Assembly: GCF_058153355.1 (NCBI RefSeq)
Contig: NZ_CM177019.1
DNA length: 64,000 nucleotides
Direction: 5' to 3' (one strand)
In this document: piece by piece, positions 42,393 to 50,182 of the stretch
How positions within the stretch are numbered: position 1 is the stretch's first letter
How the letters are laid out: each line of letters opens with the position of its first letter
Program-made: the position numbers and the translations under genes
Notes under the pieces: generated by a model
Database searches by the model: none
Told to the model about the DNA's origin: nothing
Seen by the model: the letters and a program-made list of their open reading frames with translations, nothing else

Positions 42393-43181
42393 ATGCAAGT
42401 CGACCTGCTGAGTTCCGCGCAATCTGCGCACGCGTTACACCTTTTTCACCAACATTCCCCTCTTGTGCATTGCATGACCAATGATGTGGTGCAAACCTTT
42501 ACTGCCAATACCTTGCTGGCGCTCGGTGCATCGCCAGCGATGGTTATCGAAACCGAAGAAGCCAGTCAGTTTGCGGCTATCGCCAGTGCCTTGCTAATTA
42601 ACGTCGGCACGCAGACGCAGCCACGCGCACAGGCGATGCGTGCTGCCGTTGAACAGGCAACACACTCTCAAACCCCCTGGACGCTTGATCCGGTCGCGGT
42701 TGGCGCACTCGATTATCGTCGCCGTTTTTGTCATGAACTTTTATCTTTTAAACCGGCAGCGATACGTGGTAATGCTTCGGAAATCATGGCATTAGCTGGC
42801 GTTGCTAATGGTGGACGGGGAGTGGACACCACTGACGCCGCAGCTAATGCGATACCCGCTGCACAAACACTGGCACGGGAAACTGGCGCAATCGTCGTGG
42901 TCACAGGCGAGGTGGATTATGTTACCGATGGTCGTCGCACCGTTGGCATTCACGGCGGCAATCCGTTAATGACCAAAGTGGTAGGAACTGGCTGTGCATT
43001 ATCGGCAGTTGTCACTGCCTGTTGCGCATTACCAGGCGATATGCTGGAAAATATCGCATCTGCCTGTCACTGGATGAAACAAGCCGGAGAACGCGCCGTC
43101 GCCAGAAGTGAAGGGCCTGGCAGTTTTGTTCCCCATTTTCTTGATGCGCTCTGGCAATTGACGAAGGAGGTGCAGGCATGA
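42393..43181 (+). CDS. thiM: Hydroxyethylthiazole kinase
   Basis: 262 aa ORF following the TPP riboswitch. Confidence 0.9.
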
Positions 43182-43978
43182 AACGGATTAACGCTCTGAC
43201 AATTGCAGGCACTGATCCCAGTGGTGGTGCGGGGATTCAGGCAGATCTCAAAACGTTCTCGGCACTTGGTGCTTATGGTTGCTCAGTGATTACTGCACTG
43301 GTGGCGCAAAATACCCGTGGCGTACAGTCGGTGTATCGCATTGAGCCTGATTTTGTCGCCGCCCAGCTCGATTCGGTGTTCAGCGATGTGCGAATCGACA
43401 CCACTAAAATCGGTATGTTGGCGGAAACCGATATTGTTGAAGCGGTGGCAGAACGGTTGCAACATTATCAGATCCAAAACGTGGTACTCGACACCGTTAT
43501 GCTGGCAAAAAGCGGCGACCCTCTGCTTTCACCTTCGGCGGTTGCCACGCTGCGCAGTCGATTATTGCCACAGGTTTCATTAATAACGCCAAACTTGCCC
43601 GAAGCAGCTGCCTTGCTCGACGTGCCACACGCGCGCAACGAACAGGAAATGCTGGAACAAGGACGAGCGCTGTTAGCGATGGGCTGTGGCGCAGTGCTGA
43701 TGAAAGGCGGTCATCTGGATGATGAGCAAAGCCCGGACTGGCTGTTTACCCGAGAGGGGGAACAACGGTTTACTGCACCGCGCATTATGACCAAAAACAC
43801 CCACGGCACTGGTTGTACGATCTCTGCGGCGTTGGCTGTACTACGCCCGCGCCATACAAACTGGGCTGACACCGTTCAGGAGGCAAAAAGCTGGCTTTCA
43901 TCGGCGTTAGCCCAGGCCGACACGCTGGAAGTTGGTCACGGTATTGGTCCGGTTCACCACTTCCACGCGTGGTGGTGA
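43178..43978 (+). CDS. thiD: Hydroxymethylpyrimidine / phosphomethylpyrimidine kinase
   Basis: 266 aa; ATGA overlap with thiM. Confidence 0.9.
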
Positions 43979-44042
43979 GCACCTTACTATAGCTGCTTTG
44001 GTTATTGTCAGTATTTGGCGCTGACATTCAGGGATGAAACCA

Positions 44043-44861
44043 ATGCAGCTGAGAATCACCAGTCGAAAAAAATTCACCGCTTTATTATGCGCTCTTGGGC
44101 TAATTTCCATCGTTGCAATTTATCCGCGTCAGACGGTGAATTTTTTCTATTCGACAGCTATTCAGATTAAAGACTACATCCACTTCTACGGTTATCGCCC
44201 GGTTAAATCTTTCGCTATTCGCATTCCTGCCAGTTACACCATTCACGGAATAGATGTTTCGCGCTGGCAGGAGCGGATCGACTGGCAGCGGGTGGCTAAA
44301 ATGCGCGATAACGGTATTCGCTTGCAATTTGCCTTTATCAAGGCGACGGAAGGCGAAAAGCTGGTGGACCCGTATTTTTCGCGTAACTGGCAACTAAGCC
44401 GCGAAAATGGCCTGTTGCGTGGGGCGTATCATTATTTTTCCCCGTCGGTATCCGCCTCAGTTCAGGCGCGATTATTTCTGCAAACGGTGGATTTCTCACA
44501 AGGCGATCTCCCTGCCGTGCTGGACGTAGAAGAACGGGGAAAATTATCGGCAAAAGAATTACGCAAGCGGGTAAGTCAGTGGCTAAAAATGGTCGAAAAA
44601 CGCACGGGAAAAAAGCCGATTATTTACTCAGGAGCCGTTTTTTATCACACCAATCTGGCGGGCTATTTCAATGAATATCCGTGGTGGGTGGCTCACTATT
44701 ATCAACGTCGTCCGGACAATGACGGCATGGCCTGGCGCTTCTGGCAGCATTCCGACCGTGGACAGGTAGATGGCATTAATGGTCCGGTGGATTTTAATGT
44801 GTTTAATGGCACGGTGGAGGAGTTGCAGGCATTCGTTGGTGGGATTAAAGAAACGCCTTAA
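44043..44861 (+). CDS. yegX: GH25 lysozyme-like (muramidase) family protein YegX
   Basis: 272 aa from MQLRITSRKKF; N-terminal signal/TM segment. Confidence 0.8.
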   Translation: MQLRITSRKKFTALLCALGLISIVAIYPRQTVNFFYSTAIQIKDYIHFYGYRPVKSFAIRIPASYTIHGIDVSRWQERIDWQRVAKMRDNGIRLQFAFIKATEGEKLVDPYFSRNWQLSRENGLLRGAYHYFSPSVSASVQARLFLQTVDFSQGDLPAVLDVEERGKLSAKELRKRVSQWLKMVEKRTGKKPIIYSGAVFYHTNLAGYFNEYPWWVAHYYQRRPDNDGMAWRFWQHSDRGQVDGINGPVDFNVFNGTVEELQAFVGGIKETP

Positions 44862-44912: not shown

Positions 44913-45659
44913 ATGGAACAAGCGCATACCCAGCTGATTGCCCAACTGAACGAACGTATTTTAGCGGCGGATAACACGCCGCTTTATATTAAGTTTGCCG
45001 AAACGGTGAAAAATGCCGTGCGCAGCGGGGTGCTGGAACATGGCAATATTTTACCCGGCGAGCGCGATTTAAGTCAGTTAACCGGCGTTTCGCGTATTAC
45101 GGTGCGCAAGGCGATGCAGGCGCTGGAAGAAGAGGGCGTGGTGACACGTTCGCGCGGCTACGGCACGCAGATTAATAACATCTTTGAATACTCGTTAAAA
45201 GAAGCGCGAGGATTTTCTCAGCAGGTGGTGTTGCGCGGGAAAAAGCCCGATACGCTATGGGTTAACAAGCGAATGGTTAAATGCCCTGAAGAGGTGGCGC
45301 AGCAATTGGCGGTCGAAGCGGGTAGTGATGTCTTTTTGCTTAAGCGTATTCGCTATGTTGATGAAGAAGCGGTCTCTATTGAGGAGTCGTGGGTTCCGGC
45401 GCATTTAATTCATGATGTTGATGCCATCGGAATCTCTCTTTATGACTACTTCCGCAGTCAGCATATTTTTCCAAAGCGTACCCGTTCCCGCGTTAGCGCC
45501 CGGATGCCGGATGCCGAGTTTCAGTCACATATTCAATTAGATAGTAAAATACCGGTGCTGGTGATCAAGCAAGTGGCGCTTGACCAACAGCAACGGCCTA
45601 TTGAGTACAGCATCAGCCACTGTCGCAGTGATCTATACGTTTTTGTGTGTGAGGAGTAG
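44913..45659 (+). CDS. yegW: GntR/HutC-family transcriptional regulator YegW
   Basis: 248 aa; N-terminal winged HTH (ERDLSQLTGVSRITVRKAMQALEEEG). Confidence 0.85.
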   Translation: MEQAHTQLIAQLNERILAADNTPLYIKFAETVKNAVRSGVLEHGNILPGERDLSQLTGVSRITVRKAMQALEEEGVVTRSRGYGTQINNIFEYSLKEARGFSQQVVLRGKKPDTLWVNKRMVKCPEEVAQQLAVEAGSDVFLLKRIRYVDEEAVSIEESWVPAHLIHDVDAIGISLYDYFRSQHIFPKRTRSRVSARMPDAEFQSHIQLDSKIPVLVIKQVALDQQQRPIEYSISHCRSDLYVFVCEE

Positions 45660-46598
45660 TTCCTCGCGGGTTGGCGCGCAATCACCGCCGCGATGCCCGA
45701 CAACCCACGACGCCACTGCATTGCCCAGCAATACGGCATCCGCCAGTGGCAAACCAGAGGCCAGTCCAGCTAATACGCCACCTGCATGACTGTCGCCCGC
45801 CCCAATGGTGTCTACAACTTGCGTTGGAAATGCCGGGATGCAGCCAGAAGCGTTATTGCTGAAATACCATGCGCCTTCTTTATCCAGACGGACGATCAAC
45901 GACGCGGCAAATTTCTCCTGCCATTGTTTGCCAAGTGTTGTTATCTCTGCGGATAAAGCAAAACGTTCGGCGGCAATCTCAGCCTCTTGACGATTGAGTG
46001 ACACTAAAGGTCGACAGGCCATGATCCGCGCCAGTAATGCATCCGGGATATCGCCAATACGTGGGCCAAAATCGATGAACGGCGTCACGTCTTGCAGACT
46101 CTCCAGCCATTCCACTAATAATTCACCGCAGGGCGAGGCCAGTTGATAACCGGAAAAATAGAGCAGGCTGCCAGGCGCAACGGTTAATCGCGCCAACCAT
46201 TCGCGATTCCACTGATTTTCCACACCACTGAACGACATAAACGTGCGTTCACCATCAGGCTCAACCAGCGCCAGACACCAGCCGTTATCGCCTTCGGCGT
46301 TATCGATGAGGCTGATTAATCCTTCTTTCGCCATCCGGTTACGAATAATTTCCGCCCACACACCCTGGCCGAGCGGCAGGGCATTACCCGCTTCGATACC
46401 GAGGCGATTTAACGCCACGGCAATATTCAGTGCACAGCCGCCAACGTTAACGCTCTGCTGTTTCAGTTCGATATCGCACCCACGCCAGGGTAGGGCATAA
46501 GCGTCGGCGATCACATCAATGACCGCCGCGCCGACGACCATCACCGGCTGACGCGTGGTTAATTCAGGCAGCAGCGTGTGTAATCGAGCGCCGCTCAT
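45633..46598 (-). CDS. yegV: PfkB-family carbohydrate/nucleoside kinase YegV
   Basis: 321 aa; GAGDSHAGG-type motif; converges on yegW with 27-bp overlap. Confidence 0.85.
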   Translation of the reverse strand: MSGARLHTLLPELTTRQPVMVVGAAVIDVIADAYALPWRGCDIELKQQSVNVGGCALNIAVALNRLGIEAGNALPLGQGVWAEIIRNRMAKEGLISLIDNAEGDNGWCLALVEPDGERTFMSFSGVENQWNREWLARLTVAPGSLLYFSGYQLASPCGELLVEWLESLQDVTPFIDFGPRIGDIPDALLARIMACRPLVSLNRQEAEIAAERFALSAEITTLGKQWQEKFAASLIVRLDKEGAWYFSNNASGCIPAFPTQVVDTIGAGDSHAGGVLAGLASGLPLADAVLLGNAVASWVVGHRGGDCAPTREELLLTHKNV

Positions 46599-47599
46599 AC
46601 CGCCTCCCGTTGTTGGCGATACTTCGCCAGCGCCGTGGCGTAATGATTAAAATCAAGCTGATTTACCGCATCCAGCTCCGTCTTAAACGCAGGATCGATA
46701 GCGTTAACGCCATGCAATGCGCCGCAAATCGCCGTCGCCATAGCGCCGATGGTGTCTGTGTCGCCGCCAAGATTGGCGCACAGAATGGCGCAGCGATTCG
46801 GGTCGGTTTGTGCCAGTTCAACCAGCGCAATGGCGCACGGAACGGACTCAATAGTGCTGGTACCTGCGCCAATGACCTGGTAAAGCTGTTCGCTGGCGGA
46901 TTCGGTGCCGTCGGCATTGCGCACAATTTTCAGCGCAATCTCCAGACGTGCTGCCAGTGAGGCGCTGAAGGTAGTGATGCGTTTTTGCTGTGCATGTCGC
47001 GCAATTGAAGGCAGTGAATCAACAATCGCTGACCAGCTTTCTCCGTCAATGGCACGAGAAACCGCCCATGCGATGACTACCGCGCCTGCCACCGCCAGAT
47101 CGGATTTATGAGTCGGGCTGGACGCCAGCGCTACATCATCAATAAAGGAATCAACATCACGCGCCGGAAGCAAACAACCTAATGGCGAGACGCGCATCGC
47201 TGCGCCGTTAGTCACGCCATTGTTTTCCAGTTCAGCAACGGGTTTACCGTCGCGAATGGCGTTAAGCGCAATCTTCGAAGTTGGGCCAAGCACGTTTTTG
47301 TTAAAGGCGTTGAAACGCAGCGCCCAGTCGAGAATATTACGCCCAATCAGATCCGGATCGATCTCGCCTTCACGTTCCAGTAACGCATCCGCCAGACACA
47401 GCGCCATTGAGGTATCGTCGGTGAATTCGGCGCGGTTAAAATAACAGGCCGCGTTATTCTCCTTTGGTCCAGGCAGAAAACGGTCAATCCAGCCAAAGTG
47501 TGCTTTAACGCGGCTGCGTGGCCAAAGCTCGGAGGGCATCCCCATCGCATCCCCTAACGCCTGCCCATAAAGAGCACCGAGAATACGTTCTGTTTTCAT
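46595..47599 (-). CDS. yegU: ADP-ribosylglycohydrolase-family protein YegU
   Basis: 334 aa; 4-bp overlap with yegV. Confidence 0.8.
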   Translation of the reverse strand: MKTERILGALYGQALGDAMGMPSELWPRSRVKAHFGWIDRFLPGPKENNAACYFNRAEFTDDTSMALCLADALLEREGEIDPDLIGRNILDWALRFNAFNKNVLGPTSKIALNAIRDGKPVAELENNGVTNGAAMRVSPLGCLLPARDVDSFIDDVALASSPTHKSDLAVAGAVVIAWAVSRAIDGESWSAIVDSLPSIARHAQQKRITTFSASLAARLEIALKIVRNADGTESASEQLYQVIGAGTSTIESVPCAIALVELAQTDPNRCAILCANLGGDTDTIGAMATAICGALHGVNAIDPAFKTELDAVNQLDFNHYATALAKYRQQREAV

Positions 47600-48873
47600 T
47601 TAACTTCCCCTTGTGTCAACGCAATATCGCGATCATCGACCTTGATAGCCGTAATTTCGTTGTCGGATTCGCGGAAAAAAATCATGAACAGCACGGCGAT
47701 AATGGCAATCATCACCGCGCCGAAAGTCCACATCCCGGACCAGTTGAAAGTCAGTCCGTTTACCGGTTCCGGATAAGCGAACATTTTCTCCATCATCACA
47801 CCGCCAAGACGATAGCCGAGCAAACTGCCGAATCCCTGGCAGCAGAGCGTGATCAGCCCCTGCGCAGCGGTACGCATATGCACGGGGGCTTTTTTATCGA
47901 CATAGATGTAAGCGGTAACGTAGTAAAAATCGTAACTTACTCCATGCAGCAAAATGCCAAGGAACAGTAACGCGTAGGTGAAATATTCATCCGCACTACC
48001 GTAAATAAAGAAGCCATAGCGGATCGCAGCGGTGACCAGACCAAGTAATAATACCTTTTTGATACCAAAGCGTTTGGTAAAAAACGGCAATGCCAGCATA
48101 AAGAAGATTTCAGAGAACTGGCCGAGCGTCATCCAGCCGGTGGCGTTTTTCATGCCGACTTCTGTCAGATAACCGTTGGCAAAGATGTAATAGAACGCCA
48201 GTGGCATCGCAAACAGGAATGAACAGAAGAAAAAGACGAGGAAGTTTTTATCGCGCAGCAGGATCAGCGCATCCAGGCCTAGCATGACTTTAATGTCCAT
48301 TTTGCCGGTGCTTTTTGGCGGCGTGTCGGGCAGGAAAAACGCAAACACACCGAGTAATGCGGAGCTTCCGGCGGTAATTAATAGTGGAATATTGGTCGGT
48401 GAGATATCGTCATATCCCAGCATCTGAGGCAGGAATCCGCAGACCAGGCCAGAGGCAATCCAGCCTATAGTCCCCAGTACGCGAATGCGCGGAAAATCGC
48501 GCTCCACATCCGGGACGTTAGCAAACGCGATGCTGTTAGTCAGCGCAATGGTCGGCATATAGGTCAATGAGTAGGCCAGCAGTAACGGGAAGAACCCGGC
48601 AAAAGTAGTCTGTTGCGCAGCGAAATACATCAGCACCGCACCAGCGAACATCAATACCGCCAGCACTTTCTGCGCCGAGAAAAAGCGGTCAGTGATGGAG
48701 CCAACCAGAATTGGCGACAGGATCGCCGCAATGGCGGTACAGGCATACGACCAGCCAATTTCCCCGGCACTAAAACCGCTTTTACTTAACCACAACCACA
48801 ATGGCACAAACCACGCGCCCCAGATAAACCATTCAACAAACATCATGAACGACAGCTTTGCTGTTGTTTTCAT
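47596..48873 (-). CDS. yegT: Nucleoside:H+ symporter family MFS transporter YegT
   Basis: 425 aa multi-TM; 4-bp overlap with yegU. Confidence 0.85.
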   Translation of the reverse strand: MKTTAKLSFMMFVEWFIWGAWFVPLWLWLSKSGFSAGEIGWSYACTAIAAILSPILVGSITDRFFSAQKVLAVLMFAGAVLMYFAAQQTTFAGFFPLLLAYSLTYMPTIALTNSIAFANVPDVERDFPRIRVLGTIGWIASGLVCGFLPQMLGYDDISPTNIPLLITAGSSALLGVFAFFLPDTPPKSTGKMDIKVMLGLDALILLRDKNFLVFFFCSFLFAMPLAFYYIFANGYLTEVGMKNATGWMTLGQFSEIFFMLALPFFTKRFGIKKVLLLGLVTAAIRYGFFIYGSADEYFTYALLFLGILLHGVSYDFYYVTAYIYVDKKAPVHMRTAAQGLITLCCQGFGSLLGYRLGGVMMEKMFAYPEPVNGLTFNWSGMWTFGAVMIAIIAVLFMIFFRESDNEITAIKVDDRDIALTQGEVK

Positions 48874-49129
48874 CTTTTAATTCCTTCATGACAGGTAATG
48901 TAAGGTACGCGATGACAATACCATTTAATAATACCTTTTAAATACCTTTGCGGTGAAAACTTGACCGCGGTAACATTTTTTCTGATGAATCGAGCCAACA
49001 GAAAACGCTGAAAAAACATCCAAAAGATGGAAAAACTCGCCTGTAACGACCAGGATTATGATTGCCCGCAAAAGGCGGGCCAGGACAATCCATAGCCGAT
49101 ATCCAATCGGAATTTACGGGAGCATAGTA

Positions 49130-50182
49130 ATGACAGATATTGCGCAGTTGCTTGGCAAAGACGCCGACAACCTTTTACAGCACCGTTGTATGACTATTCC
49201 TTCTGACCAGCTTTATCTCCCCGGACATGACTACGTAGACCGCGTGATGATTGACAATAATCGCCCGCCAGCGGTGTTACGTAATATGCAGACGTTGTAC
49301 AACACCGGGCGCCTGGCTGGCACAGGATATCTTTCTATTCTGCCGGTTGACCAGGGCGTTGAGCACTCTGCCGGAGCTTCATTTGCCGCTAACCCGCTCT
49401 ACTTTGACCCGAAAAACATTGTTGAACTGGCGATCGAAGCGGGCTGTAACTGTGTGGCGTCAACCTACGGCGTGCTGGCATCGGTATCGCGGCGTTACGC
49501 GCATCGCATTCCATTCCTCGTCAAACTTAATCACAACGAGACGCTAAGTTACCCGAATACCTACGATCAAACGCTGTATGCCAGCGTGGAGCAGGCGTTC
49601 AACATGGGCGCGGTGGCGGTTGGCGCGACCATCTATTTTGGCTCGGAAGAGTCACGTCGCCAGATTGAAGAAATTTCTGCGGCCTTTGAACGTGCGCACG
49701 AACTGGGCATGGTGACCGTGCTGTGGGCCTATTTGCGTAACTCCGCCTTTAAGAAAGATGGCGTTGATTACCATGTTTCCGCCGACCTGACAGGTCAGGC
49801 GAACCATCTGGCGGCAACCATAGGTGCAGATATCGTCAAACAAAAAATGGCGGAAAATAACGGCGGTTATAAAGCGATTAATTACGGTTATACCGACGAT
49901 CGCGTGTACAGCAAGTTGACCAGCGAAAACCCGATTGATCTGGTGCGTTATCAGTTAGCTAACTGCTATATGGGCCGGGCAGGGTTGATAAACTCCGGCG
50001 GTGCTGCAGGCGGTGAAACTGACCTCAGCGATGCAGTGCGTACTGCGGTCATCAACAAACGCGCTGGCGGAATGGGGCTGATTCTTGGACGTAAGGCGTT
50101 CAAGAAATCGATGGCTGACGGCGTGAAACTGATTAACGCCGTGCAGGACGTTTATCTCGATAGCAAAATTACTATCGCCTGA
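49130..50182 (+). CDS. fbaB: Class I fructose-bisphosphate aldolase
   Basis: 350 aa from [16 protein letters not shown]; ORF track extends 24 codons upstream. Confidence 0.9.

Follow-up and report, generated by a model that had tools for sequence, protein, structure and literature searches.

The yegTUV operon and its repressor YegW (GgaR): a candidate salvage system for a non-canonical riboside

What does the yegTUV operon of Escherichia coli take up and degrade? We approached this question from a stretch of 64,000 nucleotides of contig NZ_CM177019.1 (RefSeq assembly GCF_058153355.1); this whole stretch is referred to as the window, and positions are counted from its first letter. In it, yegT encodes a transporter, yegU a protein of the ADP-ribosylglycohydrolase (ARH) family, yegV a PfkB-family kinase and yegW (ggaR) a GntR-type regulator. 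The locus is already known. It is a core E. coli operon that is published and partly characterised, and it is among the remaining operons of the E. coli core that lack an assigned biochemical function. A first-pass annotation of the window had proposed salvage of a modified nucleoside or an ADP-ribosylated compound, and knew of no assigned substrate. For the three proteins this is correct, as the literature searched contains no enzymology and names no substrate for YegT, YegU or YegV. However, that annotation had missed a published proposal in which ADP-glucose is the effector of YegW and glycogen the process affected, as well as a YegT structure paper in which none of four canonical nucleosides was bound.

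We lean, by a small measure, towards yegTUV being a substrate-inducible catabolic or salvage operon for a non-canonical riboside, with the kinase acting before the hydrolase. YegW would keep the operon almost silent via GGTAT repeats over the -10 element of yegT and via an intragenic copy, and appearance of an inducer would lift this repression. YegT would then bring in an external riboside, and YegV would phosphorylate its 5'-OH, trapping it in the cell. YegU, with two metal ions, would hydrolyse the ribose C1 bond of the 5-phosphoribosyl compound. The predicted products are ribose-5-phosphate, which would enter the pentose-phosphate pathway, and the free aglycone. We infer both the riboside nature of the substrate and the order of the two enzymes from the comparisons that follow.

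The first line of evidence is the coupling of YegU to YegV across bacteria. We searched 1.84 billion representative proteins for relatives of YegU and found 239 at E < 1e-30. A scan of one genome per species gave 80 loci, in which open reading frames (ORFs) were clustered. YegU is present in 78 loci and an adjacent YegV-like kinase in 71, and a GntR/UTRA regulator was identified in 60 of the 80. The adjacency (71/78) extends over several phyla, with examples in Enterobacterales, Lachnospiraceae, Bacilli, Sutterella, Dialister and Coriobacteriia. Of ten long YegU homologs, nine are fusions of ARH and PfkB domains, which occur in either order and strongly suggest that the two enzymes share one pathway. 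Outside the enterics the operon consists almost always of U, V and one transporter only. Because it is self-contained there, the products of the module must feed directly into central metabolism. We sought conserved accessory genes that might hint at the aglycone across the loci, and found none outside the enterics. An archaeal-type locus places ECF-U-V beside genes of the IF-2B family, for Prs (phosphoribosyl pyrophosphate synthetase) and for IU_nuc_hydro (nucleoside hydrolase).

The second line of evidence is the transporter, which is swapped between lineages. YegT matches PF03825 (Nuc_H_symport) over the whole profile (5e-182, positions 1-400 of 400) and scores 651 bits against TIGR00889 (cut-off 446), which places it in the NHS family (TC 2.A.1.10). 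It matches NupG at 2e-51, and is essentially identical to PDB entry 8ZOJ ('Putative nucleoside transporter YegT'), the crystal structure reported by Xiao et al. (2025; PMC11979927). The structure has the 12-TM major facilitator superfamily (MFS) fold and the GxxxD protonation motif of transmembrane helix 10 (TM10; G311-D315), and the residues with which NupG contacts uridine (F143, Y318, F322 and N228) are not conserved (PMC11979927). In isothermal titration calorimetry, none of uridine, adenosine, cytidine or guanosine produced a signal (PMC11979927). Because these four are not bound, the substrate of YegT is probably non-canonical.

A YegT-like NHS transporter occurs in 39 of the 80 loci (Enterobacterales, Vibrio, Gilliamella and Woeseiaceae). 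Its place is taken by an NCS1 permease (PF02133) in Aeromonas, Chromobacterium, Serratia oryzae, Bacilli, Paenibacillus, Sutterella and Dialister, and by a PnuC-family transporter in Lachnospiraceae, Clostridium, Enterococcus and Gemelliphila. More distant relatives have ECF or ABC importers in the transporter slot. The PnuC-type protein scores 98 bits against TIGR01528 (cut-off 42), matches the nicotinamide riboside (NR) transporter of N. mucosa (4QTN) at 8e-40 and retains the WxxW(x)3N ligand motif. Pnu transporters operate by facilitated diffusion combined with trapping by a kinase (PMC5749112). All of the families that replace one another in this slot have members for ribosides or vitamins, which supports a riboside as the substrate.

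Some loci depart from this plan. In Edwardsiella, Serratia marcescens and S. bockelmannii (L034, L037, L039, L052, L056) we identified a YegU ortholog (61-67% identical) and a GntR gene with neither kinase nor transporter. The YegU gene lies between phoPQ and purB in L034, L037, L039 and L056, and the sequence of L052 ends at the YegU gene, so that its upstream side is not seen. These loci suggest that YegU is able to use a substrate produced by the cell itself. In two operons (L087 2795-4933 and L088 1916-4063), the gene for an ARH-domain protein of about 712 amino acids is accompanied by those for a second YegU-like ARH protein, a PfkB kinase and a CUT1-type sugar ABC transporter; these operons may be a variant for a larger ribosylated glycoside. 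In two others (L082 726-1400 and L091 1897-2496), membrane proteins of 199-224 amino acids that match the MASE1 Pfam family occupy the position expected for an ECF S-component. They precede CbiQ and two ABC ATPases, adjoin the PfkB and ARH genes, and may be an undescribed type of S-component. In Gemelliphila a single case was found of a GMP-reductase/IMPDH-family gene (L055 6925-7911) 74 bp upstream of YegU on the same strand.

By its predicted structure, YegU is a bona fide ARH-fold enzyme. It matches PF03747 (ADP_ribosyl_GH) at 7e-67, and its closest solved relatives are MJ1187 (1t5j, 5e-30) and ARH3 (1e-16). A Foldseek search with the AlphaFold model (pLDDT 97.2) returned MJ1187 (1t5j) with TM scores of 0.82/0.90, ARH3 with 0.75-0.79 and DraG with 0.76/0.86. 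E24, T60, D61, D62, D280, D282 and T283 are invariant in the 78 YegU orthologs, T63 is Ser in three and T281 Cys in one, and H164 is invariant or nearly so. These segments (E24, T60-T63 and D280-T283) align with Glu41, T76-T79 and D314-T317 of ARH3, that is, with the catalytic Glu and the TDDT/DTDT metal motifs. The ARH fold accepts alpha-NAD+ (NAD, nicotinamide adenine dinucleotide), according to PDB titles.

The part of the pocket that would hold ADP-ribose is changed. F143 and Y149 of ARH3, which we take to sandwich the adenine, align with N126 and V129 of YegU, both variable in the family, and S148 of ARH3 is opposite a gap. The GNGGAMR loop and the His of ARH3, which presumably contact phosphate, persist in YegU as TNGAAMR and H164. 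Against the equivalog models YegU scores 82 bits for DraG (cut-off 337) and 72 bits for Tri1 (cut-off 490). As far as a comparison of sequences goes, YegU does not have what recognition of an ADP-ribosyl conjugate requires.

YegV matches PF00294 at 5e-55 and has all of the PfkB hallmarks (the GG switch, NXXE, and DTxGAGD with the anion hole and catalytic Asp). G53, G54, D263, G266, G268 and D269 are invariant in 70 sequences, N202, E205 and the rest of DTIGAGD are kept in 67-69 of them, and D28 and N58 are invariant or present in at least 67. The cis-diol Asp is also retained. The residues of ribokinase that we take to be its ribose contacts (N14, K43 and E143 in 1RKD) align with V26, C55 and A154 of YegV, which are hydrophobic, Cys in 69 of 70 and variable, respectively. 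On this alignment YegV looks like a kinase for a C1-substituted ribose, not for free ribose. Its best PDB matches are ribokinases, at just 1e-14, and the STM4066 structure (1TYY) matches at 4e-4. YegV scores 83 bits against the ribokinase equivalog TIGR02152 (cut-off 299.65) and 20 bits against the pseudouridine kinase model NF007355 (cut-off 540).

These data bear on a pathway of the opposite order, in which YegU would free ribose and aglycone from an unphosphorylated riboside and YegV, as a specialised ribokinase, would make ribose-5-phosphate. Ribokinases are indeed the nearest solved and curated relatives of YegV, U precedes V in about half of the loci, and U-V adjacency and fusion are compatible with either order. 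Nevertheless, we regard this order as unlikely. The ribokinase score falls well short of its cut-off, and replacement of N14, K43 and E143 by V, C and A, with the Cys so widely kept, points to a distinct specificity. The known ARH substrates all bear a 5''-phosphoryl group, and YegU retains the loop that presumably contacts it. Furthermore, E. coli already has a ribokinase gene, rbsK.

YegW comprises a GntR winged helix-turn-helix domain (PF00392, 3e-16) and a UTRA domain (PF07702, 2e-35), as in the HutC subfamily, and falls below the cut-off of the PhnF equivalog (128.6 vs 156.8 bits). It was renamed GgaR by Saito et al. (2024; PMC10819704). Chromatin immunoprecipitation on arrays identified a single genomic target, the spacer between fbaB and yegT, with a weaker site within nt 571-869 of yegT, and binding to the yegT region was confirmed by electrophoretic mobility shift assay (PMC10819704). 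Northern blots with yegT and yegV probes reveal one 3.3-kb yegTUV mRNA, which is undetectable in the wild type and increases about 30-fold when ggaR is deleted (PMC10819704). The first-pass annotation had drawn an operon with its own regulator, and these published data bear out both the co-transcription and the repression.

We propose an operator for this repressor. Upstream of yegT are three direct GGTATT repeats (minus strand, starting at 48946, 48935 and 48922) and an inverted GTACC at 48908-48904. The repeats overlap a sigma-70-like promoter with -35 TTCACC (48957-48952) and -10 TATTAT (48933-48928). In more than 30 loci of Enterobacterales and Vibrio, GGTAT repeats stand out as a phylogenetic footprint ahead of yegT, and those of the window fall within the published 190-bp GgaR-binding probe-2 (PMC10819704). 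Within the window, the pattern GGTAT-N6-GGTATTATTA is found at two places only, 48926-48946 in the promoter and 48046-48066 in yegT, and 100 shuffles gave an expectation of 0. The intragenic copy lies inside the second published GgaR-binding probe (yegT nt 571-869). Because copies of the motif match both of the mapped GgaR-binding regions, the GGTAT array is our proposed operator, and GgaR probably binds the repeats themselves. Among the loci with the promoter site, 13 keep the intragenic GGTAT-N6-GGTAT core, roughly 875 nt from the start of yegT, at a place that is also coding sequence (FGIKKV) and where conservation of operator and of protein are inseparable; the carriers include Vibrio (L030, L031, L046), Salmonella (L008) and Budvicia (L026, L027).

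The GntR regulators of the Firmicute operons share no more than 20-29% identity with YegW. We do not treat them as YegW orthologs, and the ADP-glucose result is not transferred to them. An Rfam scan (gathering threshold) of 19 loci that lack a GntR gene identified no riboswitch upstream of the operon; the sole match was a signal recognition particle RNA elsewhere. The scan thus gives no cobalamin, thiamine pyrophosphate, flavin mononucleotide, NAD or purine riboswitch as a clue to the substrate. B12-salvage genes in Firmicutes are usually controlled by riboswitches, and the empty scan weighs against alpha-ribazole as the substrate.

Saito et al. (2024) assign the system to ADP-glucose and glycogen. 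YegTUV would import, make or spare ADP-glucose, and sensing by YegW would set glycogen storage. In gel shifts, 10-100 µM ADP-glucose frees GgaR from DNA, and ADP and glucose do not (PMC10819704). Deletion of ggaR yields 2-3 times more glycogen and poor growth on glucose minimal medium, more glucose raises yegTUV mRNA 3-fold, and deletion of yegV is reported to lower glycogen (PMC10819704). We consider this role distinctly unlikely, despite such results. No enzymatic link was shown, in the authors' own words the matter is 'somewhat ambiguous', and the three ligands tried did not include ADP-ribose, nicotinamide mononucleotide (NMN), NAD or sugar-1-phosphates (PMC10819704). Elsewhere the partners of U and V are PnuC-type facilitators and NCS1 carriers, for which a dianion of 589 Da is an implausible cargo, and YegU lacks the adenine-stacking residues of ARH3. 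The glycogen phenotype could be indirect, for example if unregulated YegV and YegU act on endogenous nucleosides or nucleotides such as AMP, an inhibitor of GlgC.

True de-ADP-ribosylation, in which YegU would strip an endogenous protein, nucleic acid or small molecule of its ADP-ribose in the manner of DraG, ARH1, ARH3 and Tri1, is very improbable even though YegU shares their Pfam family, fold and catalytic residues and has DraG and Tri1 as its best curated models, because it scores far under both cut-offs, its adenine-binding positions are not conserved, it is obligatorily tied to a kinase and an importer and not to an ADP-ribosyltransferase, and no ADP-ribosyltransferase gene was found beside the operon in the 80 gene-order maps, in which most neighbouring ORFs were clustered and not annotated by family. 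Of the two options in the first-pass annotation, riboside salvage thus fits the logic of the operon, and an ADP-ribosylated compound is disfavoured because the transporter families take small uncharged or cationic solutes and YegU has no counterparts of the ARH3 adenine-stacking residues.

Several points weigh against a riboside pathway in which the kinase acts first. ADP-glucose, which acts on YegW in vitro, is the sole ligand demonstrated so far, and the published phenotypes relate to glycogen and not to nucleosides (PMC10819704). Every characterised ARH enzyme takes alpha-linked ADP-ribosyl substrates and not beta-nucleotides, which would make YegU either an enzyme of novel specificity or one that acts on an alpha-riboside. 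The arguments for the kinase-first order are indirect, and hydrolysis alone could also trap a substrate imported by a Pnu transporter. The Firmicute operons with PnuC or NCS1 transporters encode proteins that share only 41-50% (U) and 30-37% (V) identity with their E. coli counterparts, and their substrate may differ from that in E. coli. The hint of NAD metabolism given by an NrtR-family regulator is thin, as this gene lies upstream of U-NCS1-V in one of the 80 loci (L075, Secundilactobacillus). Another such hint did not survive. An isochorismatase-family gene beside NCS1 and an ARH-PfkB fusion (L081) matches the P. horikoshii nicotinamidase only at 2e-6, and its aligned sequence is without the Asp/His metal ligands. 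We rejected it as a nicotinamidase, and it provides no evidence for nicotinamide.

If the riboside model holds, our leading guess for the substrate is a pyridinium riboside resembling nicotinamide riboside. The guess is tentative and we would not expect it to be right; it arises from the PnuC homology, the NCS1 permeases, the one NrtR-family regulator and the capacity of the ARH fold to take alpha-NAD+. We also weighed dihydrouridine, aminoimidazole riboside (AIRs) and aminoimidazole carboxamide riboside (AICAr), ribosyl-arginine and alpha-ribazole as substrates, and none of these is singled out by the data. A broader and rather improbable extension is that YegU and YegV represent a widespread unrecognised route, in which an ARH-fold phosphoribosyl glycohydrolase serves the catabolism of nutrients instead of de-ADP-ribosylation, acting on an NR-type riboside, and the YegW pocket links scavenging of NAD breakdown products to carbon storage. 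The substrate of such a route would possibly be alpha-anomeric or a damaged form derived from NAD, with YegV as riboside kinase and YegU as an NMN-type glycohydrolase. The response of YegW to ADP-glucose would then reflect a pocket that evolved for an ADP-sugar or an NMN-like ligand. The literature searched assigns no gene to an NMN glycohydrolase, and provides no informative link between ARH proteins and either PfkB with nucleosides and operon, PnuC or ribosides.

The four-gene arrangement (Table 1) is real and no chance product. RefSeq annotates the same four genes, with generic product names, and the profile matches given above agree with the families that the first-pass annotation had assigned (NHS-type transporter, ADP-ribosylglycohydrolase, PfkB kinase and GntR/HutC regulator). 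The overlaps that it had noted are also present. Both the T/U and the U/V junction read ATGA, with a stop/start overlap of 4 bp, and yegW converges on yegV with an overlap of 27 bp. Shine-Dalgarno-like sequences (GGGGAAG and GGGAGG) are found upstream of the yegT/yegU/yegV junctions. The 4-bp U/V overlap was found again in 28 loci, and the V/W overlap has the same length in 25 Enterobacteriaceae loci. Because there is no terminator-like site between the genes, the convergent transcripts of yegV and yegW probably overlap. Consistent with this, ExcludonFinder, which uses RNA-seq coverage, places yegV-yegW among the convergent pairs with overlapping transcripts (PMC12288877).

Table 1. Coordinates of the yeg genes and of the predicted regulatory sites in the window.
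Feature	Position	Strand	Length	Description
yegW (ggaR)	44913-45659	+	248 aa	GntR/HutC-family repressor of yegTUV, convergent with yegV
yegV/yegW 3'-end overlap	45633-45659		27 bp	No terminator-like site within
yegV	45633-46598	-	321 aa	PfkB-family kinase, predicted riboside 5'-kinase
yegU	46595-47599	-	334 aa	ARH-fold binuclear-metal hydrolase, predicted to cleave the ribosyl C1 bond
yegT	47596-48873	-	425 aa	NHS-family MFS transporter, first gene of the operon
Second predicted GgaR operator	48046-48066	-		Inside yegT, ORF nt 808-828: GGTATCAAAAAGGTATTATTA
yegT promoter and predicted GgaR operator	48904-48957	-		Repeats overlapping sigma-70-like -35/-10

A 5-kb yegTUVW query is contained to at least 80% in 5416 of 5426 complete E. 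coli genomes (>99%), mostly at 95-99% identity to the chromosomes. For window positions 45000-50000 the top identity among the 5,426 complete E. coli genomes is 98.3%, and 48 genomes are at 90-95%; the lineage from which the window derives seems to have no close representative among them. The neighbouring fbaB ORF, called mechanically, spans 49058-50182 (374 aa). The RefSeq fbaB has 350 aa, beginning with the methionine of MTDIAQ at 49130, and with this start the yegT-fbaB spacer is 256 bp and not 184 bp.

On the other side, a 275-aa ORF (44034-44861) lies between yegW and a 266-aa ORF (43178-43978) that is ThiD-like by eye. In most other Enterobacteriaceae loci the regulator directly abuts the cluster-c5/c6 pair, and the E. 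coli genome that matches best has genes for a DUF6493 protein and a SWIM zinc-finger protein upstream of yegW instead. The junction beside yegW is a variable spot. The enteric flanking genes (fbaB, the ThiD-like gene and the gat genes) are a matter of synteny and are not members of the operon.

New here are the U-V adjacency, the fusions, the swapping of transporters and the proposed GGTAT operator. The U-V core is common to many gut Firmicutes and Proteobacteria. Identification of the substrate would explain the role of a paralogous module in the persistence of Salmonella in the pig gut (PMC3161100). It would also rationalise or correct the ADP-glucose/glycogen model for GgaR, and would give a function to a large part of the ARH family whose role probably lies outside ADP-ribosylation. 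The comparative data narrow the candidates to small non-canonical ribosides that fit PnuC-, NCS1- and NHS-type carriers, and the GGTAT array is a concrete operator motif that is open to mutation.

How does yegTUV compare with known systems? In the pseudouridine module psuT/psuK/psuG (yeiM/yeiC/yeiN of E. coli), an importer is followed by a PfkB kinase that makes the 5'-monophosphate and by a metal-dependent glycosidase that releases ribose-5-phosphate and the base. The yeg genes share the logic of importer, PfkB kinase and glycosidase, and both are small self-contained enteric operons. However, PsuG has an indigoidine-synthase-A-like fold that cleaves a C-glycoside and is unrelated to the ARH fold of YegU, and PsuT, presumably, is a NupC-type transporter and not a member of NHS. 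YegV also fails the pseudouridine kinase model. The parallel with psuT/psuG/psuK that the first-pass annotation had drawn is therefore one of logic only. As such it is strengthened by the U-V adjacency, the fusions and the swaps among riboside transporters, and it does not extend to the psu family models.

The Salmonella operon stm4065-4067 encodes a permease, a PfkB kinase and a putative ARH protein; the kinase phosphorylates aminoimidazole riboside, and persistence in the pig gut depends in part on the ARH gene (PMC3161100). It thus resembles yegTUV in gene content and in having a kinase that acts on a non-canonical riboside (AIRs). The two are paralogous and not orthologous. Salmonella carries a true yegTUV ortholog too (L008). 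A GntR repressor of stm4065-4067, stm4068, was reportedly described by Dougherty and Downs in 2003.

ARH3, ARH1, DraG, Tri1 and MJ1187 share with YegU the all-helical fold, the catalytic Glu and both Asp/Thr metal motifs. These ARH enzymes cut alpha-linked ADP-ribose from Ser or Arg, poly(ADP-ribose) or alpha-NAD+, whereas YegU is without the adenine-stacking residues. NupG and XapB belong to the same Pfam/TIGR family as YegT and share with it the MFS fold (RMSD of 1.57 Å to NupG) and the GxxxD of TM10, but YegT is only about 27% identical to NupG, differs in the four uridine contacts and leaves the four canonical nucleosides unbound. Finally, the Firmicute operons pair a close PnuC homolog with a kinase, as in the metabolic trapping of the PnuC/NadR system. 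The E. coli operon uses YegT in place of PnuC. The kinase is of the PfkB type and not the P-loop NR kinase of NadR, and it is followed by a hydrolase where NadR has an adenylyltransferase, which points to a degradative route.

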